Program-made: the position numbers and the translations under genes
From: Elusimicrobiota bacterium
GTDB taxonomy: Bacteria; Elusimicrobiota; Elusimicrobia; UBA1565; UBA9628
Length of the DNA stretch: 64,000 bases
NCBI GenBank assembly: GCA_030696455.1
Contig: JAUYSH010000120.1
Location: 42,317 to 106,316 of the forward strand
Direction of reading: 5' to 3'
In this document: one piece after another, positions 23,468-40,131 of the stretch
Layout: each line of letters opens with the position of its first letter
Numbering within the stretch: the first letter of the stretch is position 1
The notes under the pieces: model-generated
Told to the model about the DNA's origin: nothing
Database searches by the model: none
What the model saw: only the letters and a program-made list of their open reading frames with translations

Positions 23468-24874
23468 TTACCGCAGCCGGACCTCGGCCCCGCCCGCTCC
23501 CGCCGAAAATTGCGGGGATTGGGTGCGATTGACGCGGTTGGCTTCGTCGGCGACCTTAGGTGAGAGATAGTCGTGGAGGCCCTGGGCGGTGACTCGGCCC
23601 TGGGCATCGGCGGCCGCGCCGTCCAGGCCCTTCAGGAAGTAATAGGTGAATAAGCCGTGCCCCTGGGAGTCGAAAGTTCCCGAGATCTGATTGCCGCCCG
23701 AGGCCGTGAAGACCACGAGCTTGCCGAGGTTCGCCGCCGAGCCCAGGTCGACCTTGTTGACCAGGGGCCGGGTCCCCTTCTGCAGGACGGATCTTCCGCC
23801 CGCGCCGGAAAAACAGGAGTCCAGGGCCACGAGAACCCTCTTCGCTTTGAGCGCGTTCAGGCTTGCGTAGAGGCGCTTCAGCGGGTAGGCCGTGCGCGAG
23901 AGGTAGGCGGGATCGCCGTCCCACGGCACGAGGTAGGCCTGGCCCGACTCGGGGTCGGGCGCGCCATGCCCGGAAAAATAAACGAAGACGGTCCCGTTCG
24001 TGTTGACGTTCTTCGGCAGCCAATCCTCGAGGTAAGCCTCGAGGGAGGACCGCACGGCGCGGCTGCCTTGCAGCAGCTTGATATTGCGCTCAGGATAGCC
24101 CATCGCGAGCAAGTGGGCCTTCATGGACTGAGCGTCGCGCTCCGCGAATTGAGCATCCGGAAGCTCGTTCGAGTACTTCTCCACGCCGATGACTAACGCG
24201 AAGTTGTCCGGGTTCTCGGGCAGCTTAAAGCGGGGCTCATCCACCCTCGAAGCCGGGGTAGCGGGCGCAGCCTCGGGTTTCTTCGCTTCGGAGGCCTCCC
24301 GCAAGGTCTCGAGCATGAGCCGCTTCATCTCTTCCTTATCGAGGCCGCCGGAAGGGGCGGCCGAGGCGACGGCCGCGCCCCGGACCCTCCTCGGCTCGAG
24401 CGCGAATTCGGCGACCTTCGGCGAGGCCGCTAGCTTGGCGGCGAGATGCGGGGCGATGCTGTTCGCGATCCACTCCTGGTAGCCGCTTCCGGACATCCTG
24501 TTGCCGATGGCCCCGCCGTTCAAGTCCACGGTCTCGATCTTCTTTCCGTCGGCGGTCAATCGCAGAGAAGTGAAATACGTCCCGCCGTCCTTCGTCTCGA
24601 CGCTCAAATCGAGGAGGGCGTCGGAGGCGGCCAGGTCAGCCGAAAGGTGAAATCCGGACTCGATCAAAGCCGCCTCTATTGCCGCGCGCAGCGGCGCGGT
24701 CAGCGCGTGGTTGACCGGATTCGTCACGGAACGAAGATGGAGTTTGAGCCCTTGTACGGATACGGGAGCCATGATCAGAGGTGGCTTGGGAGGGATCGGT
24801 GTGACGCAGCCGCTCAGCGTCGCCGCTACCGCGAGCAGGGATAGGGTGAATCTCTGAGAACCAGTGGTTATCAA
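23468..24874 (-). CDS. Caspase-family (peptidase C14) lipoprotein
   Basis: The His/Cys dyad YFSGHGAP ... ALDSCFSGAG and lipobox LSGC. TTG start 12 nt after the ferredoxin stop. Confidence 0.75.
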   Translation of the reverse strand: MITTGSQRFTLSLLAVAATLSGCVTPIPPKPPLIMAPVSVQGLKLHLRSVTNPVNHALTAPLRAAIEAALIESGFHLSADLAASDALLDLSVETKDGGTYFTSLRLTADGKKIETVDLNGGAIGNRMSGSGYQEWIANSIAPHLAAKLAASPKVAEFALEPRRVRGAAVASAAPSGGLDKEEMKRLMLETLREASEAKKPEAAPATPASRVDEPRFKLPENPDNFALVIGVEKYSNELPDAQFAERDAQSMKAHLLAMGYPERNIKLLQGSRAVRSSLEAYLEDWLPKNVNTNGTVFVYFSGHGAPDPESGQAYLVPWDGDPAYLSRTAYPLKRLYASLNALKAKRVLVALDSCFSGAGGRSVLQKGTRPLVNKVDLGSAANLGKLVVFTASGGNQISGTFDSQGHGLFTYYFLKGLDGAAADAQGRVTAQGLHDYLSPKVADEANRVNRTQSPQFSAGAGGAEVRLR

Positions 24875-24886
24875 AGGTAGGGCGGT

Positions 24887-25339
24887 CTACTTCGGGCTCA
24901 TGAGCCCCGGAACGACGGGGTTCTGCTTGCCGAACAGCTCGAGGACGACGGGATCGGCCTTGGGGGCCTTGTTCACGAAGCCGCGCAGCTCCTCTGGCAC
25001 GAGCTCGGGCGCCTGGAAGACGGCGTGGTCGTGGGTCAGCTGGGAGTCGAGAGAGGTCAGGTCCCCGGCGACGGACGGCGTGGGCACCATGCGGATCGTG
25101 TCCCACGGGCAGTCTTTGGCGCACAGGTTGCAGCCGATGCAGATATCGTAGTTGACGTAGACGCCCTTGGCCGCGGGCTCGTCGTCGCCGAACTTTTCGA
25201 TGCACGACGGGACGGGGCAGACGGCGATGCAGACCTCGCAGCCGGTGCAGGCGTCGAGGTTGATGAGCGCCTTGATCTTGGCCTTGGACGCGCCCTTGAC
25301 GAGGGCGGCGCGGCGCGAGTCGTTCTGAGGAGCGGGCAT
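24887..25339 (-). CDS. 2x[4Fe-4S] ferredoxin
   Basis: Two motifs: CTGCEVCIAVCP and CIGCNLCAKDCP. Confidence 0.85.
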   Translation of the reverse strand: MPAPQNDSRRAALVKGASKAKIKALINLDACTGCEVCIAVCPVPSCIEKFGDDEPAAKGVYVNYDICIGCNLCAKDCPWDTIRMVPTPSVAGDLTSLDSQLTHDHAVFQAPELVPEELRGFVNKAPKADPVVLELFGKQNPVVPGLMSPK

Positions 25340-25809
25340 TATTTCACGGCCTCCAGGATGGCTTCGGCGTGGCCGGCGACGGACACCTTGCGCGCGGCCT
25401 GCATGATCCGGCCCGTGGGCCCGATCACGAAGGTCGAGCGCACGACGCCCATGAACTTGCGGCCGTAAAGGGTCTTCTCCTGCCAGACGCCGTAGGCGCG
25501 GCAGATGTCCTTGTCCTCGTCGACCAGCAGCGGGAAGGGCAGGCCGTGCTTGGCCTTGAAGCCGGCGTGGGACTTGGCCGCGTCGGGGCTCACGCCGAGG
25601 ATGCGCGCGCCTTTCTTGACGAAGGCGTCGTAATGGTCGCGGAAGTCGCAGGCCTCGGCCGTGCAGCCCGAGGTGTTGTCCTTCGGATAAAAATAGAGCA
25701 CCACCGTCTTGCCCTTCAAGGCCTTGAGCGACCAGGTGCGCCCGGTCTCATCCTGCGCGGAGAAATTGGGGGCCCTATCGCCGGCGGCGACGGCCTTCGC
25801 TTTGATCAC
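25339..25809 (-). CDS. bcp: Peroxiredoxin Bcp (thiol peroxidase)
   Basis: VLYFYPKDNTSGCTAEAC motif. Probable GTG start at 25809 (KAKAVAAGDRAPNF aligns with the Bcp N-terminus). The track ATG at 25851 is an alternative. Confidence 0.75.
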   Translation of the reverse strand: MIKAKAVAAGDRAPNFSAQDETGRTWSLKALKGKTVVLYFYPKDNTSGCTAEACDFRDHYDAFVKKGARILGVSPDAAKSHAGFKAKHGLPFPLLVDEDKDICRAYGVWQEKTLYGRKFMGVVRSTFVIGPTGRIMQAARKVSVAGHAEAILEAVK

Positions 25810-25860
25810 GGACACCCGTTGATTGTAACAGGAATGGCCGGGGGCGGTCAAACGCCGGCG

Positions 25861-27942
25861 TCAGGAAAGGAGGCGCCGGGCGGCCTGGCGGAGTTCGTCG
25901 ATGTCGAAGGGCTTGGCGAGAAACTCGGAATTCGTCTTGGAGAGGAACTCGAGCACCTTCGGGTTGAGGATGTCCCCCGTCACGAAGAGCATCTTGGCGC
26001 TCGAGCCGCCCGCGCGGACGCGCTCGTAGATGTCCGAGCCCTTGATCCGCTCCATCTCCATGTCGGAGATGACCAGGTCGAAGGACCCCGCTTCGAGGAG
26101 CTTCAGCGCCTCGGCGCCGCCGTGGGCGACCAGCACCTCGTCGCCGTCCTCCCGCAGCAGGCGGGCGATCACCTCGGCGATGTCGGCCTCGTCGTCGGCG
26201 ACCAGCACGCGCCTGCCCCCCACGGCGGGGTGGCGGACCGGCGCTTCCACCGCTTCGAGCCGCTCGAAGTCCTCGTCGCGGCCCTCGGGCAGGTCGAGCG
26301 TGAACGCGCAGCCGAGGCCGGGGCGGTTCTCGAGGGTGACGTCCCCGCCGTGCTCGCGGGCGATCTGGCGGCAGATCGACAGGCCCAGGCCCGTTCCCCG
26401 TCCGGGCTCCTTCGTCGTGAAGAACGGCTCGAACATCCTTTCCGCCTCCCCGGGCGGGACGCCGGGGCCGTTGTCCTCCACGCGGATGAACGCGCGGCCC
26501 GCCCGCGCCCCGGTCCGCACGACCAGGCGTTTGCCCTCGGGATAGCGCACGACGCCGGCCATCGCGTCGCAGGCGTTGTTGATCAGGTTGACCAGGACCT
26601 GGACGACCTGCTGGAAATCCCCGACGATCAGCGGCGCCCGCTCGGAGGCGTCCTTGGTCACCGTAACGTCGTCGGTCTTGTGCAGGCGGTACTCGAGCAG
26701 CTCCAGCGCCGAGTCCAGCGCCGCATTGAGGTCCACCTTGCCGCGCTCGCGGCGGCTCTGGCGGACGAAGAACAGGAGGTTGTCGACGACTTTGCGGCAG
26801 CGCAGCACGTTGGCGTAGATATGCTCGAGGTCGCGGCGCAGGCCGGGCGGGCAGCCCTCCTGCTGGGCCAGCTGCACGTAGCCGGAGATCGCGCCGAGGG
26901 GGTTGTTGAGCTCGTGGGCCACCGCCGAGATCAAGGTGCCGACCGCGGAGAGCTTCTCGGCCTGGATCAACTGGGACTGGAGCTCGACGGTGCGTCGGCG
27001 GTTGTCCTCGAGGCGCTCGCCCATCTCGTTGAACGCCCCGGACAAGGTGCCGAGCTCGTCGGTCCCGACGTCGGGTATGCGCCGGGTGAAGTCCCCCCGT
27101 CCGAATTTCTCCGCGGCGTCGACCAAGGCCGCGATCGGGCGCGTGATCGAGCGCACCATGACCAGCAGGAGGACGATGAGCCCGACGAGGCCGAGCAAGG
27201 TCGTCAGCAAGGCGGCGTTGCGCACCGTGCGCAGGGGTCCCAGGAAGTCGTCGAGCGGAGCCTCGACGACGACCGCCCAGGGGCGGCCCCTCAGGGGGCT
27301 GCGCGCCGTCAGCAACTCGAGGCCGCCCTCGTTGGCGGGCCGTCCCTCGACGCGCGCCCCGCCGTCCGCCTCGAGATAGGCCCTTCCGCGTCGCCCCACG
27401 ACGACGCCGCCGAGCTGCTCGCGCAGGCGGGTCAGGTCGTAGCTGAAGGCCAGGACCCCCTTGAACTTCCCGACTTCGTCGAACACGGGCTTGGCGTAAT
27501 AGACCGCGGGCGCCGCCCCCGGGCGCGGCTCGAGCCCCGAGGTCCAGAGTCCGCCGGGCCCCGACTCGCGCGCCTTCGAGAAGGCGGGCTCCCGCGGTGA
27601 AGGACTTCCGGCCGCGGCCACGACGGCGCCGCCCGCGTCGAGGTAGGCGATGCGCGCGTAGACCCCGGTGCGCGCGGAGAAGTTGCCCAGGTAGCGGGCC
27701 AGCTCCTTGCGGTAGGCGCCGGCCTCGTCGAGCAGGCCGAAGTCGACGTTGCGGTAATAGTCCGCGATCAGCGGCGTCTCGGCCAAGGTGAGCATGTCGC
27801 GCCGCCGCTGGTCGAAGAGCTCGTCGACCTCGGAGGCCAGGCGCTTGGCCGTCGACGAGGCCTCTTTATTGATCGCGCCGAGGATCTCCCGGCGCGCCAT
27901 CACGTACTGGAACCAGACGAGGCCGCTCACGGCGAGCAGCAC
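25861..27942 (-). CDS. Hybrid sensor histidine kinase (periplasmic Cache-like sensor, HisKA, HATPase, C-terminal receiver)
   Basis: H-box AVAHELNNPLGAI, N/G boxes NLINNACDAM / GTGLGLSICRQI, and the receiver RVLVADDE...DLVISDMEM. The true start may lie upstream of the GTG at 27942. Confidence 0.85.
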   Translation of the reverse strand: MLLAVSGLVWFQYVMARREILGAINKEASSTAKRLASEVDELFDQRRRDMLTLAETPLIADYYRNVDFGLLDEAGAYRKELARYLGNFSARTGVYARIAYLDAGGAVVAAAGSPSPREPAFSKARESGPGGLWTSGLEPRPGAAPAVYYAKPVFDEVGKFKGVLAFSYDLTRLREQLGGVVVGRRGRAYLEADGGARVEGRPANEGGLELLTARSPLRGRPWAVVVEAPLDDFLGPLRTVRNAALLTTLLGLVGLIVLLLVMVRSITRPIAALVDAAEKFGRGDFTRRIPDVGTDELGTLSGAFNEMGERLEDNRRRTVELQSQLIQAEKLSAVGTLISAVAHELNNPLGAISGYVQLAQQEGCPPGLRRDLEHIYANVLRCRKVVDNLLFFVRQSRRERGKVDLNAALDSALELLEYRLHKTDDVTVTKDASERAPLIVGDFQQVVQVLVNLINNACDAMAGVVRYPEGKRLVVRTGARAGRAFIRVEDNGPGVPPGEAERMFEPFFTTKEPGRGTGLGLSICRQIAREHGGDVTLENRPGLGCAFTLDLPEGRDEDFERLEAVEAPVRHPAVGGRRVLVADDEADIAEVIARLLREDGDEVLVAHGGAEALKLLEAGSFDLVISDMEMERIKGSDIYERVRAGGSSAKMLFVTGDILNPKVLEFLSKTNSEFLAKPFDIDELRQAARRLLS

Positions 27943-28004
27943 CGGCGGCAGGATGGCCGCCAGCAGCTTCCAGGACAGGCTCGACGGGGGGGCAGGCGGA
28001 TCAT

Positions 28005-28388
28005 TCAGCCAATATGGATGTCCGCGCCGGGTCCGATCTTCAGCGCCGGGCTGAAGATCGAGATCGCCTCGCAGGAGACGGCGCCCGTGGAGAATTGATG
28101 CCGCACCCCGCGCGGGATCAGGAGGACGCTGCCCGCGGCCATGCGGTATTTCCGGCCTCCCAAAAGGGCGGACATCGAGCCCGAGACGCAGTAAACGAAC
28201 TCAGACGTGCGCCGGTGATGGATTTCCGGCAAGGTCGTGCGGGGCGGTAGATGCTCGTGCAGAATGGAGACGTCGCCGAGCAGGCCGCCGTCCTCGAGGG
28301 CGCGCGTCACCAGCTTGCCGAAGCGGGAGCCGCGGATGCGGTTCACATGCGTCACGAGAAGGCGCTTACGGGTTCTTTTTCGGATCAT
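28005..28388 (-). CDS. Cupin-domain protein (127 aa)
   Basis: The ATG at 28388 overlaps the binding-protein stop (ATGA). Cupin motifs HEHLPP...E...GS...G..Y....G.VLLIPRGVRHQF. It is hidden in the C-terminus of a long wrong-frame track ORF. Confidence 0.6.
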   Translation of the reverse strand: MIRKRTRKRLLVTHVNRIRGSRFGKLVTRALEDGGLLGDVSILHEHLPPRTTLPEIHHRRTSEFVYCVSGSMSALLGGRKYRMAAGSVLLIPRGVRHQFSTGAVSCEAISIFSPALKIGPGADIHIG

Positions 28389-29860
28389 TCGATCTCGGCT
28401 CCGTAGAAATAGGGCATCCCGGAAACGTATGGAGCGAACTTGACTCCGCGCCTCAGCCCGTAGGTACGAATGCGCTGATAGGTGGGCAGGGCGAGGAATT
28501 CCGAGTGGATATAAGCGTCGAGCTCCTCGGACGCCTCCCGCTGCTCGCCGGCGTCGAGCGTCTTGACCATCCTTTCCAGCCGCTCGTCGATCCCCTTGTC
28601 GGACGACAGCGAGAAAGGAGAGTTGCCCGCCAGGAAGATCGAGCGGATGAAAAAGGCGTGATGCATCGGGTCCGGGCAGTCGTAGATGGCGATATCCCAC
28701 TGATCCCGAGTCTTGAGATTCTCGAAGAGCTGCGCGTCGGTGACCAAGGTCGGCTCGAGACGGATGTCGATCCGCTCGAGCTGTTTGGCCAGGATCTGCC
28801 CCGTGCGGACGGCGTTGACCTTCAGCAGAACCTTCAACGCGAACCCCTTCGGATACCCCTCTTCCCGAAGGATCCGTCGCGCCTTCGCGGGGTCGTATGG
28901 GTAAGGCGCCAACTTCGCATTGTGGCCGAATTCCCCGGGCAAGGTGAGCGTCCCGATCGGCACGCCGTTGCCGAGGATGTCGTAGCGCACCAGGGCCTTG
29001 CGGTCGATGCCCAGGTTCAACGCCTCCCGTATTCTCCGATTGGACAGAGGCTTGCGGGAGAGGTTGAAGTTTCCCGCCACCGTGTAGAACGTCGGCTTCT
29101 TGACCACCGCCGTCCGGGAGGAGGCCTGCACCTCCAGCGTGCGCGTTCCGGGAAGGTTCGTCAGGATGTCGAGTTCGCCGGAGAGCAGCGCCTCGACCTG
29201 ACGGGCGGCCGCGATGAACCGGAATTCCAGCCGGTCGACCTTCGGATAGCCGCTTTTCCAATAGTCGGGGTTGGCGTCCAGGACGATGCGGTCGCCCTTC
29301 ACCCACTCCTTGAACACGAACGCCCCGCTGCCGACGGGCTTCTCCCGCAGCGACGCCGCGTCGTGTTTCCCGTAATGCTTCGGCGCGACCATGACCATGA
29401 AGCCCGCGAGGCGGTTGAGCAGCAGGCCGTCGGGGAACCTGGTGACGACGTCGACCTCGAAATCCGAGACGATCTCGGCCCTCGCGATGGAGTCGATGAA
29501 CCCGAGGGCCGGGAAGCCCGTGGCGGGGTCGAGGTAGCGCTCGACGTTGAACTTCACGCTTCTCGCGTCGAAGGGCTCGCCGTTGTGGAACTTCACTCCC
29601 TCGCGCAAAGTGAACCGCATCGTGTTCGCGTCGAGTCGGCGCCACCGCGTCGCGAGCGCCGGTTCGATCTCCCCCTCCGGAGTGAAGCGCACAAGGCCCT
29701 CGAACAGTTGCTGGACGAGCGTATGATTCTTCTCGGAGAACTGCTTGTGGGGATCCAAGGTGAGCGGGTCCTGCACGTCGTCGCACACGGTCAGGACGGA
29801 GGCGGCGGGCGCGGCGAAGGCCGGCGGGAGCAGGAGCAGCAGCGCCAGCAAGGTCGGCAA
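28385..29860 (-). CDS. ABC-type family-5 (peptide/nickel/opine) substrate-binding protein, orphan
   Basis: 491 aa with a signal peptide. TTG start with an AAGGA Shine-Dalgarno sequence. Typical family-5 length and sequence character. No permease or ATPase genes are nearby. Confidence 0.8.
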   Translation of the reverse strand: MPTLLALLLLLPPAFAAPAASVLTVCDDVQDPLTLDPHKQFSEKNHTLVQQLFEGLVRFTPEGEIEPALATRWRRLDANTMRFTLREGVKFHNGEPFDARSVKFNVERYLDPATGFPALGFIDSIARAEIVSDFEVDVVTRFPDGLLLNRLAGFMVMVAPKHYGKHDAASLREKPVGSGAFVFKEWVKGDRIVLDANPDYWKSGYPKVDRLEFRFIAAARQVEALLSGELDILTNLPGTRTLEVQASSRTAVVKKPTFYTVAGNFNLSRKPLSNRRIREALNLGIDRKALVRYDILGNGVPIGTLTLPGEFGHNAKLAPYPYDPAKARRILREEGYPKGFALKVLLKVNAVRTGQILAKQLERIDIRLEPTLVTDAQLFENLKTRDQWDIAIYDCPDPMHHAFFIRSIFLAGNSPFSLSSDKGIDERLERMVKTLDAGEQREASEELDAYIHSEFLALPTYQRIRTYGLRRGVKFAPYVSGMPYFYGAEIE

Positions 29861-29861
29861 A

Positions 29862-30881
29862 TTATTTTTCCTTTACGCCGATGAGGATGCGCGACGAGTT
29901 CCGGGATTCTACCGCAATCGGATGCTCCGTGAGGCGGGAGAAGCCCGCGCGGCGCAGCCACCCCGCGTATTCCCCGGCCGTGTAGGTGCGGCCGCCTTCG
30001 GTGTAGGCCAGCATGTGCACGGAGAACAGCGCCCCGAACACGGGCCGCACCCGGTCCGGCTCGAGCATGAAGTCGTGGATGATGATTTTCCCCCCGGGCT
30101 TGAGCGCCCTCCGGCTTTCCTCGATGAGGCGGCGGTTGACCTCGGGGCTCTCGTCGTGGGTGATGTGGGAGAGCAGGACGAGGTCGTACTCGCCGCGCCC
30201 GAAGCAGGCGTCGCGGTAATTCCCCGCCTTGAGCCGCGTCCGGGCGGCCAGGCCCGGGAACTCGGCGAGCATCCGGCGCGTGACCTTCAGCGTGCTCGGC
30301 AGATCGAGCAAGGTCGCGCTCATCTCCGGGTTGGCGCGCAGGAAGGCGAGGCTGTACGTGCCGGGTCCGGCGCCGACGTCGAGCAGGCGGCTTCCGGGCG
30401 CGGGGGCCGCGAGCGCCGCGATCTCCGCGGCGGGACCGCGCGCGATGTTGTCCATGCCCTTGATGTATTCCTGCGTGAACCCCTTGTGGCGCAGGAGCCA
30501 ATACTCGAGAGGCCGGACCGCGCCCCCCTTGCCGATGGAATGGCGCAGGTCGCCCCAGGCGTCCCAGATCATCTCCTGGTACTTGAGGTTGTCGCCCATG
30601 TAGCCGGGCTTGCCGCGGACCAGGTAGCGCGCGGAGATCGGGGCGTTGGCGTAGAGCCTTCCGCGCTTGTGAAGGTAGCCGATGGCGGTCAGCGCGTCGA
30701 GCAGGATCTCCATCGCGCGCGGGTCGAGCTTCAGGCGCCGCGCCATGGCCGCGGCGGTGCGGGGAGTCGTCAGCGGGGTGAAGACGTCGATGTAGGCGGC
30801 GACCATGAGGATCTTGGCCTTGCGATAGCCCATGATCTCGTCGATGAGACGGTCGGGGCTCACGGGGGCAGAAGTCTTCAT
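29862..30881 (-). CDS. Class I SAM-dependent O-methyltransferase (family 2, with N-terminal dimerisation domain)
   Basis: The LLDVGAGPG motif and N-terminal winged-helix dimerisation region. Its start overlaps the ThDP-enzyme stop. Confidence 0.85.
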   Translation of the reverse strand: MKTSAPVSPDRLIDEIMGYRKAKILMVAAYIDVFTPLTTPRTAAAMARRLKLDPRAMEILLDALTAIGYLHKRGRLYANAPISARYLVRGKPGYMGDNLKYQEMIWDAWGDLRHSIGKGGAVRPLEYWLLRHKGFTQEYIKGMDNIARGPAAEIAALAAPAPGSRLLDVGAGPGTYSLAFLRANPEMSATLLDLPSTLKVTRRMLAEFPGLAARTRLKAGNYRDACFGRGEYDLVLLSHITHDESPEVNRRLIEESRRALKPGGKIIIHDFMLEPDRVRPVFGALFSVHMLAYTEGGRTYTAGEYAGWLRRAGFSRLTEHPIAVESRNSSRILIGVKEK

Positions 30882-32611
30882 TTATTGTCTCCCGCGAACA
30901 GCTTATCGAGCGCGCGCACGCGCGAGTGGATCGGCGGCGCCTCGGCGGCATCGACTCGCACGTCGAGCACCGCCGGCCGCCCCGAGGCCAGGGCCGCGGC
31001 GACGGCGGCCGCGAGGTCCCCCGGGTGCAGCACGCGCCGCGTCCAGGCGCCGAGGGCCGAGGCCACGCCCGCGACGTCCATGCGGCGGAACTCCGTCCCG
31101 ATCGTACGCCCCGCGTACTGCATGGCTTGGCCGTGGTAAACCGCGTTGAGGCGCGCGTCGTTGAGCACGATCCAGACGACGGGGACGTTCTCCGTGACCG
31201 CGGTGGAGACCTCCATCCCCGCCATCGCGAAGCCGCCGTCGCCGACGATCGCGATCACCGGGCGCTCCGGCGCGGCGAGCTTGCCTCCCACCGCCGCGGC
31301 CACGCCGTAGCCCATCGCCGCGAACTCGCCCCAGTTGTGGATGAAGGCGTTGCGGCCCGTGGCGGTCAGGTAGTGCGTGGCCCAGAGCGTGTTGGCGCCG
31401 ACGTCGAGGAAGATAAGCGCGTCGCCGGGGAGCGCCGCGTCGAGCTCGGCGATCAGGCGCTGCGGCTTGATCGGCACGGCGTCCGACGCCATCGCGGCGG
31501 GGTCCAGGAAAGACGGCACGCCCGCCTTGAAGCGGGCGAAGGCCCCGCGCGCGCCCGCCGCGGGAGACTCGCCGCGGGCGAGGCGACGGCGCAGCTCGAA
31601 GAGCAGCTCGCGCAAGGTCGTTTTCGCGTCGCCCGCCATGGCGACCGCGACCGGATAGTTCCGGCCGATGACCGCCGGCTCGATGTCCTGCTGCAGCACG
31701 AGCCCGGCGCCGAGCCGCGGGTCCCAGCCGGAGGTGGAGTTCTCGTGCAGGCTGCTGCCGAGGACGAGCAGCGCGTCCGTTCCCTCGTCGAGCAGGTAGC
31801 GTTCGGAGCACGGAGAGCTGGCCAGACCGAACACGCGCAGGGACAGCGGATGCGTCTCCGGGAAGGCGCCCTTGCCTTTCGGGGTGGTCGCCACGGGAAT
31901 CCAGAGAAGCTCCGCCAGCTCGAGGAGCTCCGCCTGCGCCCCGGCAAGATTGACGCCGTGCCCGGCGAGCGCGGCCGGGCGGCGGGCGTCGAGCAGGACG
32001 GCGGCGCAGCGGCGGACCGCGTCCCGGTCGAAGAGCCGCGGCTCCGAGCGGTACATCCCCGGCGCCGCGCTTTCGCCGACGGCCGGGCGACGCATGAAGT
32101 CGGTCGGAACGCTGAGATGCACCGGGCCGCGTCGGCCCGTCAACGCGATTCTCAAGGCCTGGCGCAGGACGCTTCCGGCGGCGGCCGGATTGGCGAGCAT
32201 CGCGCTCATCTTGGTCACGGGGCGAAACAGCGCGACGGTGTCGACGCCGCTCTCGGTGGAATCCTGCAGCGAGCCCTTCCCGAAGGACGAAGTGGCCGTC
32301 TGGGCCGTGAGCACCAGGACCGGCAGCCCGTCGGCCCGCGCCGCGGCGACCGCCGTGATCGCGTTGGCGGCGCCGGGCCCCGTGGTCAGCAGGCAGACGC
32401 CGAGGCCGCCGCGCACGCGGGCGTCGCCCAGGGCCATGAAGGCGGCGCCGGCCTCGTGCCGCGGGGCGACCAGGCGCAGGGCAGGCTCATCGTGAAAGGC
32501 GTCGAACAGCGGGGTCGCCGGCCCCCCGGGAATGCCGTAGACGGTCCGCACGCCTTCGCGCTTCAACTGGTCGAGAATGAGCCTCGAGACGGTGATGACT
32601 TCGCTGGGCAT
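30878..32611 (-). CDS. Thiamine-diphosphate-dependent enzyme (acetolactate synthase / benzoylformate decarboxylase superfamily)
   Basis: N-terminal GVRTVYGIPGGPATPLFDAF, the ThDP motif GDGGF...N-x, 577 aa. Confidence 0.85.
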   Translation of the reverse strand: MPSEVITVSRLILDQLKREGVRTVYGIPGGPATPLFDAFHDEPALRLVAPRHEAGAAFMALGDARVRGGLGVCLLTTGPGAANAITAVAAARADGLPVLVLTAQTATSSFGKGSLQDSTESGVDTVALFRPVTKMSAMLANPAAAGSVLRQALRIALTGRRGPVHLSVPTDFMRRPAVGESAAPGMYRSEPRLFDRDAVRRCAAVLLDARRPAALAGHGVNLAGAQAELLELAELLWIPVATTPKGKGAFPETHPLSLRVFGLASSPCSERYLLDEGTDALLVLGSSLHENSTSGWDPRLGAGLVLQQDIEPAVIGRNYPVAVAMAGDAKTTLRELLFELRRRLARGESPAAGARGAFARFKAGVPSFLDPAAMASDAVPIKPQRLIAELDAALPGDALIFLDVGANTLWATHYLTATGRNAFIHNWGEFAAMGYGVAAAVGGKLAAPERPVIAIVGDGGFAMAGMEVSTAVTENVPVVWIVLNDARLNAVYHGQAMQYAGRTIGTEFRRMDVAGVASALGAWTRRVLHPGDLAAAVAAALASGRPAVLDVRVDAAEAPPIHSRVRALDKLFAGDNK

Positions 32612-32628
32612 GGGCTTGAGCCCGCGGG

Positions 32629-33228
32629 TCAGCGCGCCGCCCGTACGGCTTCGCCCGACGCGGGCTCGCCCGTCAGCAATTGGGCGGCCCGGGCCATCAG
32701 GTCCTTATAGATCAGGGGTTTACGGAAGAACCCGTCGACCTTGAGCTCCGCGAGCTTCTTGGCCGAGAACGGAAGCTTTTGGCCGCTGACGGCGATGATT
32801 TTGAGGCCCTTCGTATGCGGCTGGCTCTTGAGGACCCGGCACACCTGCAGGCCGTCGAGCTTGGGGATGACGATGTCGAGGATGACGAGGTCCGGAGGCG
32901 CCTGCCCGATGCGGATCAGGGCGGTGAGGCCGTCGCCGCAGGTCTCCACGTCGTAGGCGCCGCGGCGGGAGAAGGCCCGCGAGAGAAGCTTGGCCTGCTC
33001 GGCGTCGTCCTCGACGATGAGCACGCGCTTGCGCGCGACGAGCTCGTTGGGCAGGCGGATGCTCAGGCGCTGGAGAAAGTCGATGACGTTCTCCCGCGTC
33101 ACGCGGTAGTGGCCGCCCTCGGTCCGCTGGGTGATCAGCTTGCCGGCCTTGATCCAATGCAGGACGCTCGAGGGGTACACGTCGCAGAATTCGGCGATGT
33201 CGTGGGTCGTGTAGGTTTTTTCGGGCAT
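32629..33228 (-). CDS. Response regulator with an N-terminal excisionase/MerR-type HTH and C-terminal receiver
   Basis: HTH THDIAEFCDVYPSSVLHWIKAGKL, then the receiver RVLIVEDDAEQ...LVILDIVIPKLDG. It ends 17 nt before the ThDP-enzyme start. Confidence 0.8.
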   Translation of the reverse strand: MPEKTYTTHDIAEFCDVYPSSVLHWIKAGKLITQRTEGGHYRVTRENVIDFLQRLSIRLPNELVARKRVLIVEDDAEQAKLLSRAFSRRGAYDVETCGDGLTALIRIGQAPPDLVILDIVIPKLDGLQVCRVLKSQPHTKGLKIIAVSGQKLPFSAKKLAELKVDGFFRKPLIYKDLMARAAQLLTGEPASGEAVRAAR

Positions 33229-33297
33229 GGGCTCTCTATGCTTCGTTTACTTCGTTTACTGAGTATACACCGATTCCCCCCTTGCGGTCAAGGCTGA

Positions 33298-34026
33298 TTG
33301 CGTCTACACTCAGGCATGGACCCATCGAAGCGGAAGCGGACCTTGGTCGTCGAGGATGATCCCGCGATGCGCGCGCTGTACGCCCGCCTGTTCGACCGCC
33401 TCTGGGACGAGGGCTTCGCCTCCGTCATCGTGGAGAACGGGGAACGGGCGCTCGACATCCTGCGGCGCGAGCCGGTGGACCTCATCCTGCTCGACTGGAA
33501 TCTGCCGGGAATCTCCGGGCAGACGGTCCTGCGCGCCGTGCGCGCCCATCCGAAGACCCTCACGATCGGCGTGCTCATGGTCACGGGCAAGTGCTCGCCC
33601 GACGAGGAGATCGAGGCGCTCGACTCGGGCGCCGACGATCACCTGGCCAAGCCGTTCGACGAGAACGTGCTTCTCGCCAGGCTGAGGAGCCTGGGCCGGC
33701 GCCGCGAGCTCGAGACCGCCGCCCCGCCCGCCGACCGTTTCCCGGGACTCGAGTTCGACCCCGGCGCGGACCTGCTTCTCATCGACGGCCGGCGCGTGCG
33801 CCTGACGCCCAAGGAGCTGGGCCTGCTCGGCATTTTCCTGCATCGGCCGAACCGCCTCCTCACGCACGATTACCTTTGGGCCACTTTATGGGGCTACGAG
33901 TCCGAGCGCTGGGAGAACCTCCTCATCGTCACGCTGTCGTCCCTGCGCCGAAAGCTCGGGGAAAAATGGGGCTCGCGCCTGATGTGCCGCAAAGGCCGGG
34001 GGTACATTCTCGAGAGCCCGCCTTGA
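33298..34026 (+). CDS. OmpR-family response regulator (receiver plus winged-helix)
   Basis: TLVVEDDPAMR...LILLDWNLPGISG receiver and a trans_reg_C-like C-terminus (LTPKELGLLGIFLHRPNRLLTHDYL). The start could instead be the ATG at 33316. Confidence 0.85.
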   Translation: MRLHSGMDPSKRKRTLVVEDDPAMRALYARLFDRLWDEGFASVIVENGERALDILRREPVDLILLDWNLPGISGQTVLRAVRAHPKTLTIGVLMVTGKCSPDEEIEALDSGADDHLAKPFDENVLLARLRSLGRRRELETAAPPADRFPGLEFDPGADLLLIDGRRVRLTPKELGLLGIFLHRPNRLLTHDYLWATLWGYESERWENLLIVTLSSLRRKLGEKWGSRLMCRKGRGYILESPP

Positions 34027-34622: not shown

Positions 34623-35321
34623 GTGAGCGAGCCTCTCGCCCCGGCCTACCGAGAGGCGCTCGAAGGCGCGCGGGAGGAATGGGGGCGCCCGCTCGACGTC
34701 GCGGCCGCCGACGGGCTTTTTCCTCAGGGCCCGCCCGGCGTGATCATCGCGCTCGGCGGGAGCGCCGCTGCGTCGGCGCGACGGCACGGCGCCCCGCTGG
34801 TCGTGGCACTCGCCCCGTCCGACCGCGGCGCGACGGTCTTCATCGCGATGACCCCTTCGCCCGAACGTCTCGTGAGCCTCCTCGCCGCGCGAGGCGTGCG
34901 CCGCCTCCTCGCCGTGCGCGCGGCTCCGGCCGAGTCGGAGTTCTCCCGGCGGACGGTCGCCGCCGGACGAGCGGCCGGGGTCCGCATCGAGGCCGCCGTG
35001 CTTTCTTCGCCGCGCAGCATGCCTGGGCTGTTGCGCCGCGCCGGGATGAAGGCGGACGCGCTATGGCTCGCGCCCGATCCGGACTCGGTCACGCCCGGAA
35101 CCTTCGCCGCGGCGAGGGAGTTCTCGCGCGCCCGGGGAATTCCGTTCTTCGCGCCCGCCGCGGGGCTCGTTTCGGAAGAGAGCCTCGGCGACCTGGCCGT
35201 TTCCTTCCGCGACTGCGGACGGGAGGCCGCGCGCGCGGCCCGGGAGCTTCTCGCCGGGCGCCCCGTGGCGAAAGTCGTCTATCCCGGCGAGACCCCGGCG
35301 GCCGCCGATCCCCCCCGCTGA
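34623..35321 (+). CDS. Periplasmic-binding-like protein (ABC_sub_bind / PF04392-like)
   Basis: Sequence character of the two-component-associated ABC substrate-binding family. First canonical start is the GTG at 34623. A signal-peptide-like in-frame stretch upstream has no start codon. Confidence 0.45.
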   Translation: MSEPLAPAYREALEGAREEWGRPLDVAAADGLFPQGPPGVIIALGGSAAASARRHGAPLVVALAPSDRGATVFIAMTPSPERLVSLLAARGVRRLLAVRAAPAESEFSRRTVAAGRAAGVRIEAAVLSSPRSMPGLLRRAGMKADALWLAPDPDSVTPGTFAAAREFSRARGIPFFAPAAGLVSEESLGDLAVSFRDCGREAARAARELLAGRPVAKVVYPGETPAAADPPR

Positions 35322-36445
35322 CTCGCAAGCAGGGCGGCGATCTCGGAGACGGCGTCGTCGGCCGCGCCGGGGCGTCCCGCCGCCCGCGCGCGCTCGCTCA
35401 GCTCGGCGAGCGCCGCGCGGTCCAAGAGAAGGGCGGCCGCGGCCCGCGCGGCGCGCTCCGGGGAGCCGCCGTCGATCGCGGCGCCGGCTCCGAGGAGGAA
35501 GCGGGCGTTGGCCTCCTCCTGCCCCGGCAGCGGCTCCGTCAGGACCATGGGCAGGCCGGAGGCGAGGCTTTCGGCCGCGCTGAGCCCGCCGGGCTTGCCA
35601 ACGTGCAGGTCTGCGGCCGCCATCATGGCGGCGACGAGTTCCGAAGGCTGGGGGCCGAAGACGCGCAGGCGGGCGCCGGACTCGCGGTGAGCGCAGAGGG
35701 CCGCGCGAACGCGGTCGTTGGCGCCGCACAGGACGAGCAGGTGCGCGCGCGGGCTCGCGCTCAGGAGAGCGAGCGCCAGGCGGTCGAGGCCGCCAAGCCC
35801 CTTGCCGCCGCCCGACAGCAGGGCCGCCGGGGCCGACGGAGGCAGGGCCAAGAAGCGCCGCGCCTGCTCCCGGGGAAGGCGCTCCGCGAAGGCGGGGCTC
35901 ACGGGTATGCCGGTCGCGCGCAGGCGGCTTCGAGGGACGCCGTGCGCAGCCAAGGCGGCGACGGCGACTTCATCCGGCGCCAAGATGAGGTCGGCCGGCG
36001 GGTCGGCCCAGAACGGATGCGCGCCGTAGTCGGTGAGCACGGAGACGACCGGAATCTCGAGGTCTCCCCGCCGCCGGGCCTCGGCGAGCACGGCCGCCAC
36101 CGCGGCCTGAGGGCAGACGACGACCGCCGCGCCGGACCGGCGCACCCCCTTCCTCAGCCGCCGGGCGCCCCCGAGGCTCAGGTACGCGCCGCGCACGGCC
36201 TTCAGGACCGAACGGGCCCAGGGGCCGCGGTACAGCGCCCCGTACAGCCCCGGCGCCGCGCGAAGCAAGCCATGATAGCCTTGAGCGATGGCCGATCCGG
36301 CCGCCGGATGATGGTCCGCCGCTATGTTTATTGAAGAAAAGGCGAAGCCGGCCTTTCGGCCGGCCTCTTCGATGGCGAAGGCCGCCGCGGAGTGCCCGCT
36401 CGGCTGATAGCCGTAGACGAGCAGCGCCCGCGACGCCTCGTTCAA
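35279..36445 (-). CDS. GT28-family glycosyltransferase (MGDG synthase / MurG-like)
   Basis: 388 aa with an N-terminal Rossmann GT-B pattern (LLVYGYQPSGHSAAA) and a C-terminal domain like UDP-sugar transferases. Confidence 0.65.
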   Translation of the reverse strand: MNEASRALLVYGYQPSGHSAAAFAIEEAGRKAGFAFSSINIAADHHPAAGSAIAQGYHGLLRAAPGLYGALYRGPWARSVLKAVRGAYLSLGGARRLRKGVRRSGAAVVVCPQAAVAAVLAEARRRGDLEIPVVSVLTDYGAHPFWADPPADLILAPDEVAVAALAAHGVPRSRLRATGIPVSPAFAERLPREQARRFLALPPSAPAALLSGGGKGLGGLDRLALALLSASPRAHLLVLCGANDRVRAALCAHRESGARLRVFGPQPSELVAAMMAAADLHVGKPGGLSAAESLASGLPMVLTEPLPGQEEANARFLLGAGAAIDGGSPERAARAAAALLLDRAALAELSERARAAGRPGAADDAVSEIAALLASQRGGSAAAGVSPG

Positions 36446-36449
36446 TCGA

Positions 36450-37046
36450 TTAAAGGTCCTTCGCTTCCTTCAGCTCTTCGTATCGCTTCGGATTCTTCGT
36501 CTTGAGCTGGTCGATGAGGCCCTTGCGGTGCGCCGCCCAAGCCTTGGCGTTCTCTCCGGTCTTGCGCTTGATCGAGTCGTAGGCGAGGAACTCATAGATG
36601 GACTTGCCGTCGGCCTTCTGGATGCCGCAGCCGGGCTTGTTCATCATGCGCTTGACGTAGCGGCTCCAGATCTTCGTCTCGATCTGCCACACGGAGGCGT
36701 CGGTGAACAGCTCGGGCTGGGCCTTTTTGAGGGCGGCGAGCGCGGCCTCCTGCTTCTTATCGTCGATGCCGCCTTCGGGCTCGACGAAGCGGCTGTTGAG
36801 CGGCCGCGCTGCGGAATGGCACTGGGCGCAGCCGCCCTTCGTGCTGATCATCTTCTTGTACCCGGCCTGGACGTTGGCGGGGTAGGTCTTGAGCAGCGCG
36901 TCGGGGATCGTCTCCGGCCCGAAATCGTTCGGATACGGATTGGTGAGAGCCTTTTCCTTCTCCGTCATCTCGGCCGCGCGAACGGGCGACGCGAAGGCCG
37001 CGCCCAGCAGGGCGACGGCGGCAAGCAACGTCAATTTGCGGTTCAT
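36450..37046 (-). CDS. Monohaem c-type cytochrome, periplasmic
   Basis: Signal peptide and the CAQCH haem-binding motif. Confidence 0.8.
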   Translation of the reverse strand: MNRKLTLLAAVALLGAAFASPVRAAEMTEKEKALTNPYPNDFGPETIPDALLKTYPANVQAGYKKMISTKGGCAQCHSAARPLNSRFVEPEGGIDDKKQEAALAALKKAQPELFTDASVWQIETKIWSRYVKRMMNKPGCGIQKADGKSIYEFLAYDSIKRKTGENAKAWAAHRKGLIDQLKTKNPKRYEELKEAKDL

Positions 37047-37075
37047 ATTTATTCCCCCTAAGTGGTACGGCGTCG

Positions 37076-38461: not shown

Positions 38462-38462
38462 G

Positions 38463-40118: not shown

Positions 40119-40131
40119 TATTTTATAGTCC

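Follow-up and report, generated by a model that had tools for sequence, protein, structure and literature searches.

What does a gene for a periplasmic binding protein do when it is packed between small-molecule enzymes and a two-component system, with no transporter beside it? The question is raised by a stretch of 64,000 nucleotides from an uncultured Elusimicrobiota genome (hereafter the window), in which six minus-strand genes form a tightly packed cassette (33228-25861; Table 1). Open reading frame (ORF) calls and Pfam searches give the order HTH_17-receiver regulator, ThDP-dependent enzyme, family-2 O-methyltransferase, family-5 solute-binding protein (SBP; SBP_bac_5), cupin, and dCache-HAMP hybrid kinase; all six genes and their domains lie where an earlier note on this DNA had placed them. 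The sequence also bears out the close junctions that it described. The regulator and ThDP genes are 17 nt apart, ATGA overlaps join the ThDP gene to the methyltransferase gene and the SBP gene to the cupin gene, and the TTG start of the SBP gene follows the methyltransferase TAA after one spacer base. The cupin-kinase junction is closer than the ORF finder suggests: an ATG at 28004-28002 directly abuts the cupin stop (TGAATG).

Table 1. Features of the cassette and its flanks, in coordinates of the window
Feature	Coordinates	Strand	Basis
Promoter-like site downstream of the kinase gene	25822..25851	-	TTGACC, 18 nt, TACAAT, with TG
Hybrid sensor kinase	25861..28004	-	Pfam; TM, dCache_1, TM, HAMP, HisKA, HATPase_c, receiver (Response_reg)
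C7 homopolymer, kinase frame break	27986..27992	-	N-terminus comparison with relatives
Small cytoplasmic cupin	28005..28388	-	Pfam Cupin_2
Exchangeable block, mature SBP and cupin	28005..29780	-	Nucleotide and protein identity to L171, allele trees
Family-5 solute-binding protein	28385..29860	-	Pfam SBP_bac_5, E 2e-75
Family-2 SAM-dependent O-methyltransferase	29862..30881	-	Pfam Dimerisation and Methyltransf_2
ThDP-dependent carboligase, BbmA-like clade	30878..32611	-	Pfam TPP_enzyme_N, M, C
Response regulator	32629..33228	-	Pfam; N-terminal HTH_17 (MerR/excisionase-type), C-terminal receiver (Response_reg)
Tandem 9-bp direct repeats	33241..33268	-	GTATACTCA / GTAAACGAA / GTAAACGAA / G; overlap -10 box
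Sigma-70-like promoter of the cassette	33262..33291	-	TTGACC, 18 nt, TATACT; promoter scan, 10/12 positions matched
OmpR-type response regulator, divergent	33298..34026	+	Pfam

One promoter is common to the regulator, the enzymes, the receptor and the kinase, and a promoter and terminator scan found no terminator-like sites on the coding strand inside the cassette. The same promoter layout is present upstream of the regulator gene in six related loci (L001, L091, L092, L094, L171 and L023). In these same loci, which represent the close clade only, a divergent OmpR-type regulator adjoins the cassette as it does here, and it is possibly a second output; in L004 an OmpR-type regulator directly follows the kinase. 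The 9-bp repeat is unique within the 64-kb window (chance expectation, 0.01 matches) and is kept in close relatives. Different repeats of 9-bp period occupy the same place in L011 and L012 (CTAACAnnn, 3-5 copies), and another lies at the corresponding place in L003 and L096 (AGTTAC). We regard the repeats as a candidate operator for the cassette's own regulator, and the shared promoter suggests an autoinduction-type layout in an operon that looks autoregulated. The downstream promoter-like site lies immediately after the kinase stop, ahead of a Bcp peroxiredoxin gene, and likely marks the 3' end of the operon.

We propose that the ThDP-dependent enzyme is the synthase of a small molecule. Its best match in the PDB is Brevibacillus BbmA (8x3x; E 1e-136, 460 bits), with which it shares 43-50% identity in a full-length alignment; CsmA scores 275 bits, acetolactate synthases (AHAS) about 220 bits and oxalyl-CoA decarboxylase about 160 bits. 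The catalytic Glu53 and the cofactor motif G457-D458...N484 are invariant in an alignment of 14 family members, BbmA included. The earlier note had asked whether this enzyme clusters with acyloin-forming carboligases, and the scores suggest that it does, grouping it with the acyloin-type carboligases of secondary metabolism; it would be expected to carboligate 2-oxo acids to an acyloin. In the published CybE/CybF, NzsH and ScyA pathways, the first step is likewise the condensation of 2-oxo acids by a ThDP carboligase (PMC12395478; PMC9822442). KAS III genes adjoin the ThDP homologues of Brevibacillus, Thermosporothrix and Nitrospirota, and KAS III was not found in the window or in any SBP-type cassette. 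In some of the CybE/CybF, NzsH and ScyA pathways, the carboligase is reportedly paired with a KAS III-like enzyme.

The same enzyme could be taken for a housekeeping acetolactate synthase of branched-chain amino-acid synthesis, since generic acetolactate-synthase models match it with E values of about 1e-107 and some source databases label its homologues in this way. For assignment to AHAS, we used the curated NCBIfam equivalog cut-off of TIGR00118, 538 bits or more. The enzyme scores 356 bits against this model and is under the cut-off of every other NCBIfam AHAS model as well. A check of the scanned window ORFs and of the gene lists for related loci found no ilvN, ilvC or ilvD neighbours, and the sequence is far nearer to BbmA than to any AHAS. 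Where AHAS enzymes carry an RFDDR motif, the aligned stretch reads SLHEN. The housekeeping role, which the earlier note had named among the findings that would overturn its reading, was therefore rejected on the cut-offs, the neighbours and the closeness to BbmA, and we give it almost no probability.

The O-methyltransferase scores 75.7 and 39.1 bits in Pfam against cut-offs of 22.3 and 25.6, respectively. A search for the SAM-binding DxGxGxG motif located LLDVGAGPG, and of the solved structures those of small-molecule methyltransferases (RedM, MfnG, SibL and MmcR among them) are nearest. The gene is missing from four related cassettes (L003, L004, L012 and L172), and the methyltransferase is thus an accessory tailoring enzyme outside the conserved core. 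Of the enzyme trio that the earlier note had described, the ThDP enzyme and the cupin do belong to the core, whereas the methyltransferase does not. The cupin was compared with the metal-binding motifs G(X)5HXH(X)3-4E(X)6G (motif 1) and G(X)5PXG(X)2H(X)3N (motif 2). In an alignment of 11 cassette cupins, His58, Glu63 and His97 are invariant in all 11, and I, V, S or G stands where the HxH pair would begin; of the four ligand positions of YxaG, the cassette cupins thus keep three. The best PDB match of the cupin profile is Bacillus subtilis quercetin 2,3-dioxygenase (E 1e-19), with further matches to gentisate and acireductone dioxygenases. We propose that this cupin is a metal-dependent tailoring or turnover enzyme.

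The N-terminus of the SBP, MPTLLALLLLLPPAFA/AP, reads as a signal peptide, and we propose that the protein is a periplasmic ligand receptor or co-sensor. Could it instead simply serve the uptake of peptides, nickel or opines, with its permease and ATPase encoded elsewhere and only a loose functional tie to the neighbouring enzymes and kinase? Its best family matches are GsiB- and NikA-type binding proteins, and its closest solved structures bind peptide, agropinic acid, agrocinopine and nickel, as this explanation would predict. Yet every NCBIfam match falls far under its cut-off (GsiB, for example, 151 bits against 594). ABC ATPase signatures (LSGGQ, Walker A) are absent from all frames of the 64 kb, a Pfam scan of 46 window ORFs found no permease or ABC domains, and no related locus has an ABC partner beside the SBP gene; the only ABC genes seen in related loci, those of L025, belong to another type that has a TOBE domain. 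The absence of an ABC partner on which the earlier note had remarked thus extends through the window and its relatives. Moreover, the genes on either side overlap the SBP gene or lie directly against it, and the linkage of the SBP gene is kept in nine of nine loci with a close ThDP orthologue. We consider an ordinary uptake role very improbable.

A transporter-less periplasmic SBP beside a hybrid kinase with a periplasmic Cache-type domain is an arrangement of the LuxPQ or CBP-ChiS type, in which physical contact between the SBP and the kinase would change kinase activity. Periplasmic binding proteins reportedly gate hybrid sensor kinases in CBP-ChiS of Vibrio cholerae, TorT-TorS and ChvE-VirA. 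CBP is said to be a family-5 (Dpp/Opp-type) binding protein that also serves an ABC importer, and the binding proteins of all three systems reportedly sense nutrients, with no linked genes for ligand-making enzymes.

The longest ORF of the kinase (25861-27942) starts at a GTG at 27942. Translation from the ATG at 28004 gives MIRL..., in agreement with the kinase N-terminus in the relatives compared (L094, L171 and others), and the C7 tract shifts this ancestral start out of frame by one base. A hypothetical eighth C would give MIRLPPPSSLSWKLL..., which is close to MIRLRPPSSLSWKLL of L171. The frameshifted kinase start in this window was counted against the signalling model presented below. A further point against the model is that hybrid kinases usually require an Hpt protein, whereas neither the cassette nor the window ORFs that were scanned include one. 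The HTH_17-receiver regulator is present in every full cassette, in a different position in L004.

The earlier note had asked whether the cassette is conserved as a unit, and it does recur across divergent genomes. It is kept together in at least 14 independent Elusimicrobiota loci, which range from 45 to 69% in GC content and from 41 to 94% in ThDP enzyme identity and which differ in their flanking genes. The conserved core comprises the ThDP enzyme, SBP, cupin, regulator and kinase. Gene order is altered in L004 with membership unchanged, and in L101 a B12-radical-SAM gene is inserted, an addition limited to one lineage. A constant core with variable tailoring genes (the O-methyltransferase and the B12-radical-SAM gene) is a pattern typical of a biosynthetic pathway. 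Among 43 loci with a ThDP enzyme at least 40% identical, 20 have an SBP_5 gene no more than 6 kb from the ThDP gene; among 93 loci with a more distant enzyme, none has. The association exceeds chance, in counts of loci that share phylogeny and are not independent. Searches started from the SBP returned the same cassette in three of three new look-ups, and about 30 SBP matches lie on contigs of exactly the same length as contigs with ThDP matches. Its recurrence as a set in many related loci makes the cassette a good candidate for a kind of cell-to-cell or chemical-cue signalling system that is not yet described.

Comparison with L171 reveals that the mature SBP and the cupin have been exchanged in one piece between cassettes that are nearly identical elsewhere. 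At the nucleotide level, the window and L171 are 76-97% identical (mostly 85-95%) between 33300 and about 29780, 47-75% (mostly 55-60%) across the SBP gene and about 40% in the cupin gene. Protein identities are 94% for the ThDP enzyme, 92% for the methyltransferase, 84% for the kinase, 55% for the SBP and 34% for the cupin. Two SBP-cupin alleles are spread over the clade, and their trees conflict with that of the backbone. The kinase dCache domain, 87% identical to that of L171, was not exchanged along with the SBP, and therefore any SBP-kinase interface must tolerate both SBP alleles. If the SBP and cupin handle one ligand, a joint swap is expected, as in pherotype systems. In the comQXPA (Bacillus) and agrBDCA (Staphylococcus) pherotypes, the genes that specify and receive the signal are likewise replaced jointly in an otherwise near-identical operon. 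However, their signals are peptides and their variable block includes the kinase sensor domain, whereas the block of the cassette consists of the SBP and cupin and the kinase sensor is conserved. Co-replacement of adjacent genes can also come from a single recombination event without functional meaning.

We propose that the cassette is a complete signalling module for a small molecule, with synthase and receptor in one autoregulated operon, by analogy with LuxS/LuxPQ; in our judgement the chances for and against this proposal are even. In the cytoplasm, the BbmA-like carboligase would join two 2-oxo acids, probably at least one of them aromatic or branched-chain, to an alpha-hydroxy-beta-keto acid or acyloin. 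The cupin, putatively metal-dependent, would turn this into the final molecule, possibly by decarboxylation, isomerisation or oxidation, and in some lineages the O-methyltransferase or the B12-radical-SAM enzyme would decorate it further. The product would leave the cell (no exporter was found within the Elusimicrobiota cassette) and be bound by the orphan periplasmic SBP, and the ligand-loaded SBP would act upon the dCache domain of the hybrid kinase. The kinase would in turn set the phosphorylation state of the HTH_17-receiver regulator, which would bind the 9-bp repeats over its own operon's -10 box, presumably among other targets. We infer the chemistry, export, SBP-ligand and SBP-kinase contacts, phosphotransfer and operator function from the genes and their sequences. 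The putative outcome would be quorum sensing, with a product of the cell building up outside it, binding to the receptor and switching on the operon; the single operon that looks autoregulated, the promoter repeats and the SBP-cupin allele exchange support this indirectly.

This scheme resembles the Vibrio AI-2 system, where a cytoplasmic enzyme (LuxS) makes a small signal, a periplasmic solute-binding protein with a non-transport role (LuxP) binds it, and the binding protein controls a hybrid kinase (LuxQ) with a tandem-PAS/dCache-like periplasmic domain and a C-terminal receiver. In contrast to LuxS/LuxPQ, the synthase of the cassette is a ThDP carboligase, the binding protein is of the SBP_bac_5 family, synthase, receptor, kinase and regulator share one operon, the cupin is an obligatory member, and there is no linked Hpt protein equivalent to LuxU. 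The expected acyloin or alpha-hydroxyketone would fall into the chemical class of CAI-1, and the receptors of the CqsA/CqsS and LqsA/LqsS systems (CAI-1, LAI-1; PMC3285556) are also membrane kinases with a receiver domain. However, CqsA is a PLP-dependent acyl-CoA transferase, CqsS binds its ligand directly in the membrane without an SBP, and both systems are unrelated in sequence to all cassette components. With the pathways to CybE/CybF furanolides, NzsH carbazoles and ScyA scytonemin, and with BbmA and CsmA, the cassette shares the enzyme superfamily and probably the first reaction, the condensation of two 2-oxo acids; those acyloin synthases are paired with KAS III-like or other scaffold-building enzymes, whereas the Elusimicrobiota clade pairs its enzyme with an SBP, a cupin and a two-component system.

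It may be instead that what the SBP and kinase detect comes from outside the cell, for instance a phenolic from plants or lignin, a flavonoid-like molecule or a 2-oxo acid, and that the ThDP enzyme, methyltransferase and cupin detoxify or transform this compound inside the cell. The matches of the cupin profile (quercetin 2,3-dioxygenase as the closest, and also gentisate and acireductone dioxygenases) and the similarity of the methyltransferase to phenol O-methyltransferases agree with this, a shared external substrate explains the SBP-cupin co-swap equally well, and nutrient-sensing SBP-dependent kinases (CBP-ChiS, TorT-TorS) are said to exist. Nevertheless, an importer is absent from all loci, the ThDP clade is one of biosynthetic carboligases and not of catabolic decarboxylases or lyases, and regulators within the enzymes' transcription unit are rarer in catabolic operons; the MFS transporter beside the ThDP gene in Rokubacteria variants also speaks against it, although transport in either direction is possible. 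We regard this explanation as unlikely, though deserving of some weight. The earlier note had proposed a module that links synthesis to sensing. Its composition and conservation are borne out, and the computational checks that the note had suggested all came out on its side. That the enzymes' product is the molecule sensed by the SBP and kinase is something we infer from the genes; much of the evidence would also suit a metabolic response set off by a cue from outside.

Alternatively, the cassette may make a secondary metabolite, for example an antibiotic or allelochemical of acyloin or butenolide-like structure, with the SBP and two-component system answering an unrelated signal. Furanolides and sattazolins of this enzyme class are described as bioactive (PMC12395478; PMC9822442), relatives of the ThDP enzyme occur with KAS III in natural-product-type contexts, and tailoring genes differ among loci. 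Against this, the orphan SBP and hybrid kinase are invariant members of the core while the tailoring enzymes vary, the SBP allele shifts jointly with the cupin and not independently, and the cassette has no resistance or export gene. This makes a product that is not the ligand improbable in our view.

Returning to the signalling module, we advance more tentatively, and with the balance somewhat against it, that it represents a new class of cell-cell signalling, in which a ThDP carboligase would serve as autoinducer synthase for an acyloin-type molecule, a small metal cupin would finish the signal, and a matched orphan family-5 SBP would read it and gate a hybrid kinase of the dCache type. Cupin and SBP would then be an exchangeable specificity pair with at least two 'pherotypes' in one species-level clade of Elusimicrobiota, and the ThDP/SBP/hybrid-kinase sets of Rokubacteria, Nitrospirota and Nitrospinota would belong to the same broad family. 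We know of no autoinducer synthase that uses thiamine diphosphate, nor of any chemical communication system in the Elusimicrobiota, a widespread and almost uncultured phylum. If true, the proposal would extend bacterial signalling by a new class of synthase and a new pairing on the receptor side, that of a family-5 SBP with a dCache hybrid kinase, and orphan solute-binding proteins presently annotated as parts of ABC transporters would gain a function. It would also provide a compact six-gene unit that is testable in a heterologous host. In the two SBP-cupin alleles, carried on nearly identical backbones, nature has already set up a test of specificity. The Rokubacteria carry a reduced trio of ThDP enzyme, SBP_5 and dCache kinase, plus the MFS transporter, whose gene is divergent and adjoins the ThDP gene; this transporter was counted in favour of the signalling module, as was an AI-2E-family transporter encoded nearby in L018.

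The six cassette genes lie on the minus strand, all with high third-position GC, in a window whose G+C content is approximately 68%. The junctions described in the earlier note (a 17-nt gap, ATGA overlaps and a TTG start after a stop) were borne out from the sequence: 17 nt separate the regulator gene from the thiamine-diphosphate (ThDP) enzyme gene, ATGA overlaps are found both between the ThDP and O-methyltransferase (OMT) genes and between the family-5 binding protein (SBP) and cupin genes, and the OMT stop codon, TAA, is followed by one spacer base and then by the SBP start codon, TTG. A sigma-70-like promoter (TTGACC, 18 nt, TATACT) lies 5' of the regulator gene, and a second promoter-like site lies straight after the kinase stop codon and before the Bcp gene. 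The operon therefore has a plausible start and end, with the kinase probably its last gene. We found no terminator-like sites on the coding strand within the cassette, and a repeat search there returned weak coding-sequence repeats and nothing else. No Rfam family matched between positions 23000 and 35000, indicating that this region carries no TPP or other riboswitch.

Positions of the cassette and of other features in the window (domain names are Pfam families)
Feature	Position	Strand	Content
Cassette	33228-25861	-	six genes
Regulator	32629-33228	-	HTH_17 + Response_reg
ThDP enzyme	30878-32611	-	TPP_enzyme_N, M and C
OMT	29862-30881	-	Dimerisation + Methyltransf_2
SBP	28385-29860	-	SBP_bac_5
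Cupin	28005-28388	-	Cupin_2
Hybrid kinase	25861-27942	-	dCache_1-HAMP-HisKA-HATPase_c-Response_reg
Repeats after the -10 box	33259-33241		GTAAACGAA GTAAACGAA G
ATG abutting the cupin stop	28004-28002	-	encodes MIRL
C7 run	27992-27986	-	shifts the kinase frame
Genes 3' of the kinase	23468-25851	-	Bcp, ferredoxin, Peptidase_C14
Rieske/cytochrome cluster	35279-41716
1112-aa ORF	43689-47027
366-aa ORF	48560-49660
Heavy-metal export cluster	49743-62709

After the kinase gene, the same strand encodes a peroxiredoxin of the Bcp type, then a 2x[4Fe-4S] ferredoxin and a Peptidase_C14 protein that is caspase-like. The ferredoxin gene overlaps the Bcp gene by 1 nt, and the Bcp start codon may lie almost at the transcript start, which would make this message leaderless. 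We considered these three genes as cassette members and rejected them, since they accompany the cassette in the close clade alone and Bcp is preceded by a promoter-like site of its own.

The earlier note had proposed asking whether the cassette is conserved as a unit in related genomes, and the comparison of related loci by means of gene tables, tblastn and Pfam indicates that it is. Homologues of the ThDP enzyme with 55-94% identity come nearly all from Elusimicrobia MAGs. All six genes are present in loci L091, L092, L093 and L094, and also in L173, where gene calling missed the cupin, which is present in the gap. L001/L002 and L171, the last being the closest relative found, share the order regulator-ThDP-OMT-SBP-cupin; L171 has a three-gene insertion (Trypsin_2, DUF4279 and a hypothetical gene) ahead of the kinase, and the L001 contig stops after Trypsin_2. 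The OMT is missing from L003 and L172 and from L004/L005, in which the regulator is relocated between the cupin and the kinase. The same cassette recurs in L011, L012, L023, L024 and L101, where the ThDP enzyme is just 41-49% identical, and kinases of distant loci have additional GAF and PAS domains. The GC content of the cassette loci ranges from 45 to 69% and their flanking genes are unrelated; the cassette thus moves, or is kept, as a unit. Given the variable presence of the OMT and of a B12-binding radical-SAM gene, which is inserted between OMT and SBP in L101, the core consists of the ThDP enzyme, SBP, cupin, regulator and kinase, and the OMT and radical-SAM enzyme are accessory tailoring genes. 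The Trypsin_2 protease (810-863 aa) is encoded after the cupin at L171 9888-13386 (with the DUF4279 and hypothetical genes) and at L001 14716-17148.

We then binned the fetched loci by the identity of their ThDP enzyme to that of the window and scored SBP_5 and kinase core genes within 6 kb; the background loci were mostly distant acetolactate synthase (AHAS)-like ones, among the matches listed from genome and metagenome contig scans. At identities of at least 55%, all 9 loci have SBP_5 and 7 have a kinase core; at 40-55%, 11 of 34 loci have SBP_5 and 16 a kinase core; below 40%, these numbers are 0 and 16 of 93. With the first two bins combined, the Fisher test gives p = 2e-12 (SBP) and p = 3e-5 (kinase); as the loci are not phylogenetically independent, both values are indicative only. 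Searching from the SBP side gave 570 matches at E <=1e-40, and those labelled by source are all Elusimicrobia. Approximately 30 of the SBP matches sit on contigs of exactly the same size as ThDP matches, and the reciprocal test holds, with all three SBP homologues that were looked up and had no previously matched ThDP gene lying in the cassette. About half of the 16 loci below 40% identity with a nearby kinase core are from Gammaproteobacteria (among them L039, L041, L042, L044, L048, L049 and L062), with ThDP enzymes 33-35% identical; this linkage may represent a conserved association in its own right. ThDP and kinase genes are paired in a second way at L008 10001-13391, where an Elusimicrobia-like ThDP gene of the BbmA family overlaps a gene for a cytoplasmic GAF-HisKA-HATPase kinase and no SBP is present.

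Reduced sets also occur outside Elusimicrobiota. Two Rokubacteria MAG loci (L018, L025) and the unassigned metagenome contigs L019, L103, L108 and L110 combine a ThDP enzyme of 45-50% identity with an SBP_5 protein and a dCache-HAMP-GAF-GAF hybrid kinase, usually together with a divergent MFS transporter. L018 also has an upstream gene for an AI-2E-family transporter (6385-7470), and in L110 (1212-9743) a metallo-beta-lactamase-fold protein and then an aldo-keto reductase are encoded at the end of the set. L006 (Nitrospirota) and L035 (Nitrospinota) each have a BbmA-like gene close to genes for a hybrid kinase and a binding protein of the ABC_sub_bind type, and the L006 set also has a KAS III gene. 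Thus, this ThDP clade and a binding-protein/hybrid-kinase pair recur together in several phyla.

The closest solved structure to the ThDP enzyme is Brevibacillus BbmA (PDB 8x3x), with a full-length alignment at E 1e-136 and 460 bits, versus 275 bits for CsmA and about 220 bits for any AHAS. The question raised in the earlier note, namely whether the enzyme clusters with acyloin-forming carboligases, is thereby answered in the affirmative by sequence, and carboligation is the predicted activity. All 14 family members compared retain the catalytic Glu53 and the G457-D458...N484 residues that bind the cofactor. A KAS III gene adjoins the gene for an 87%-identical BbmA homologue, that for a Nitrospirota ThDP homologue, and that for the Thermosporothrix hazakensis homologue, where a prephenate dehydratase gene stands beside KAS III. 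A KAS III-like protein is the partner of the carboligase in some published ThDP pathways. Our literature search found no relevant description of BbmA or CsmA. In two published accounts (PMC12395478, PMC9822442), the first pathway step is the condensation of 2-oxo acids by a ThDP carboligase: CybE joins ketoisovalerate and 4-hydroxyphenylpyruvate, after which CybF makes the furanolide (PMC12395478), and indole-pyruvate or arylpyruvates are the substrates that NzsH, ScyA and the sattazolin enzymes couple (PMC9822442). Two other identities were rejected: a housekeeping AHAS, given a TIGR00118 score of 356 bits against a cut-off of 538 and, for all other NCBIfam ThDP models, scores under the cut-off, and a catabolic AlsS-type acetolactate synthase (253 bits against 510).

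The cupin, which has no export signal, finds its best PDB profile match in the quercetin 2,3-dioxygenase YxaG of B. subtilis (E 1e-19). Across 11 cassette cupins, with identities down to 20-30%, there is no variation at His58, Glu63, Gly70, Gly86 and His97 and almost none at His44. His58, Glu63 and His97 align to three of the four metal ligands of YxaG, and the HxH pair lacks its first His. It is more likely that the cupin is an enzyme dependent on a metal bound by a 2-His-1-Glu site than that it does no more than bind a ligand. The carboligase product would be expected to offer alpha-hydroxy-carbonyl or enediol groups, on which quercetinases and acireductone dioxygenases work. An AlphaFold model of the cupin from the single sequence was unusable (pLDDT 42). 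The OMT resembles small-molecule, chiefly phenolic, O- and C-methyltransferases (RedM, MfnG, SibL, MmcR).

The SBP has the signal peptide MPTLLALLLLLPPAFA/AP and, as the earlier note had remarked, lacks an ABC partner in the window: a search of all frames of the 64 kb found no signature of an ABC ATPase, and the 46 window ORFs scanned with Pfam include no ABC permease, ABC ATPase or Hpt protein. It scores far under every named NCBIfam model (for example GsiB, 151 bits versus 594), and its nearest solved relatives, at modest scores, bind peptides, glutathione, agropinic acid, agrocinopine and nickel. A lipoprotein was considered and rejected, since the Cys of VLTVCDD is replaced by Ala in L011 and there is thus no conserved lipobox. 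With the kinase sensor region as query, a PDB search gave HAMP matches alone. The ATG that abuts the cupin stop (TGAATG), the ancestral start of the kinase, encodes MIRL, a beginning common to the kinases of L094 and L171 (MIRLRTPSSLSWKLL and MIRLRPPSSLSWKLL). Relative to these two loci, the C7 run in the window introduces a one-base shift into the kinase frame, and the long ORF picks up again at a GTG at 27942, with half of the first transmembrane helix lost. The shift could be an assembly error at the homopolymer, a recent inactivation (pseudogene) or a slippage switch.

Comparison with L171, whose cassette backbone is nearly identical, reveals an exchangeable block. Protein identities are 94% for the ThDP enzyme, 92% for the OMT, 82% for the regulator, 94% for Bcp, 84% for the whole kinase and 87% for its dCache domain, versus 55% for the SBP and 34% for the cupin. 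Nucleotide identity is 76-97% (mostly 85-95%) from 33300 to approximately 29780, just inside the SBP gene, past which it drops sharply to 47-75% (mostly 55-60%) in the SBP gene and about 40% in the cupin gene. The SBP and cupin of L171 share 82-90% identity with their counterparts in L091, L092 and L094, and those of the window group with L001 (78% and 81%) and L093 (67% and 71%); the backbone genes, unlike the SBP and cupin, place the window with L171 instead. Further ThDP/SBP pairs, matched by identical contig size, show the same dimorphism: identities to the window are 94% and 54% (P0001 and P0281), 84% and 55% (P0014 and P0287), 85% and 54% (P0017 and P0297) and 83% and 55% (P0019 and P0291), and P0002 and P0227 (92% and 88%) keep the type of the window. 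These groupings indicate that a single backbone lineage carries two circulating alleles of the SBP-cupin block. In functional terms, the simplest reading, for which the pattern is suggestive, is that cupin and SBP act on the same molecule and must match; a single recombination event over two adjacent genes, without selection, could give the same pattern. The com and agr peptide systems show comparable polymorphisms in specificity.

Straight after the -10 box stands a tandem repeat of GTAAACGAA that is unique in the 64 kb (chance expectation 0.01 matches), and a degenerate copy, in register with the 9-bp period, makes up the -10 region. The layout recurs upstream of the regulator gene in L001, L091, L092, L094, L095 (three copies), L023, L173 and L171 (about five in-phase units). 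Other clades have other repeats of 9-bp period at this position, CTAACAnnn three times in L011 and five times in L012, and AGTTAC...AGTTAC in L003 and L096. The putative HTH recognition helix varies in step with the repeat: YPSSVxxW with GYAAACGAA, AHTTVIRW with CTAACA and FHTTVINW with AGTTAC. We infer that the repeats are the candidate operator of the regulator, in which case the operon would be autoregulated. In the PDB, the regulator matched receiver domains alone.

The best-supported model, to which we give roughly even credence, is a self-signalling module of synthase plus receptor. The ThDP carboligase, the cupin and the optional tailoring enzymes would make a small acyloin-type molecule that would exit the cell; the orphan SBP would capture this molecule and control the dCache hybrid kinase, and the regulator would feed back on the cassette promoter. 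Its architecture parallels that of LuxS/LuxP/LuxQ, and the product would be expected to fall in a class that parallels CAI-1 and LAI-1, which are alpha-hydroxyketone autoinducers (PMC3285556). No cassette component is homologous in either case. The model has weak points: the cassette contains no exporter and no Hpt protein, and the kinase sensor domain is unchanged when the SBP allele switches. Its main rival is a cue-response operon for sensing and converting an aromatic compound from outside the cell. This reading explains why the cupin is dioxygenase-like, why the methyltransferase is of phenol type and why SBP and cupin co-vary, but leaves unexplained both the biosynthetic affiliation of the ThDP enzyme and the absence of any importer, and we regard it as rather unlikely. 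That the cassette is a metabolite cluster under the control of an unrelated signal seems improbable, and all remaining readings have a small probability.

Control of a hybrid kinase by an SBP is known logic; what is new in the self-signalling model is its class of synthase, a cupin as obligatory member, a family-5 protein as receptor and an SBP-cupin pair that can be exchanged. We found no description of such a signalling system in the searchable literature, in keeping with the earlier note, which knew of no described system of this composition, and no paper joining acyloin or ThDP enzymes to quorum sensing. Database labels on the parts are generic: 'acetolactate synthase' or 'thiamine pyrophosphate-binding protein' for ThDP-type homologues, and 'ABC transporter substrate-binding protein' or 'peptide/nickel transport system substrate-binding protein' for SBP-type ones.

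Elsewhere in the window, a Rieske/cytochrome b/multihaem cytochrome c cluster is syntenic with L001 and L171 and suggests that the organism respires; it also includes genes for a CbiX-like protein and for a glycosyltransferase resembling MGDG synthase. The 1112-aa and 366-aa ORFs, between which lies a subtilase gene, have strong coding signal and no Pfam match. The heavy-metal export cluster encodes a CusCBA-like RND pump (OEP, HlyD with HMBD, AcrB family) as well as a P-type ATPase in which YHS and HMBD domains are present.
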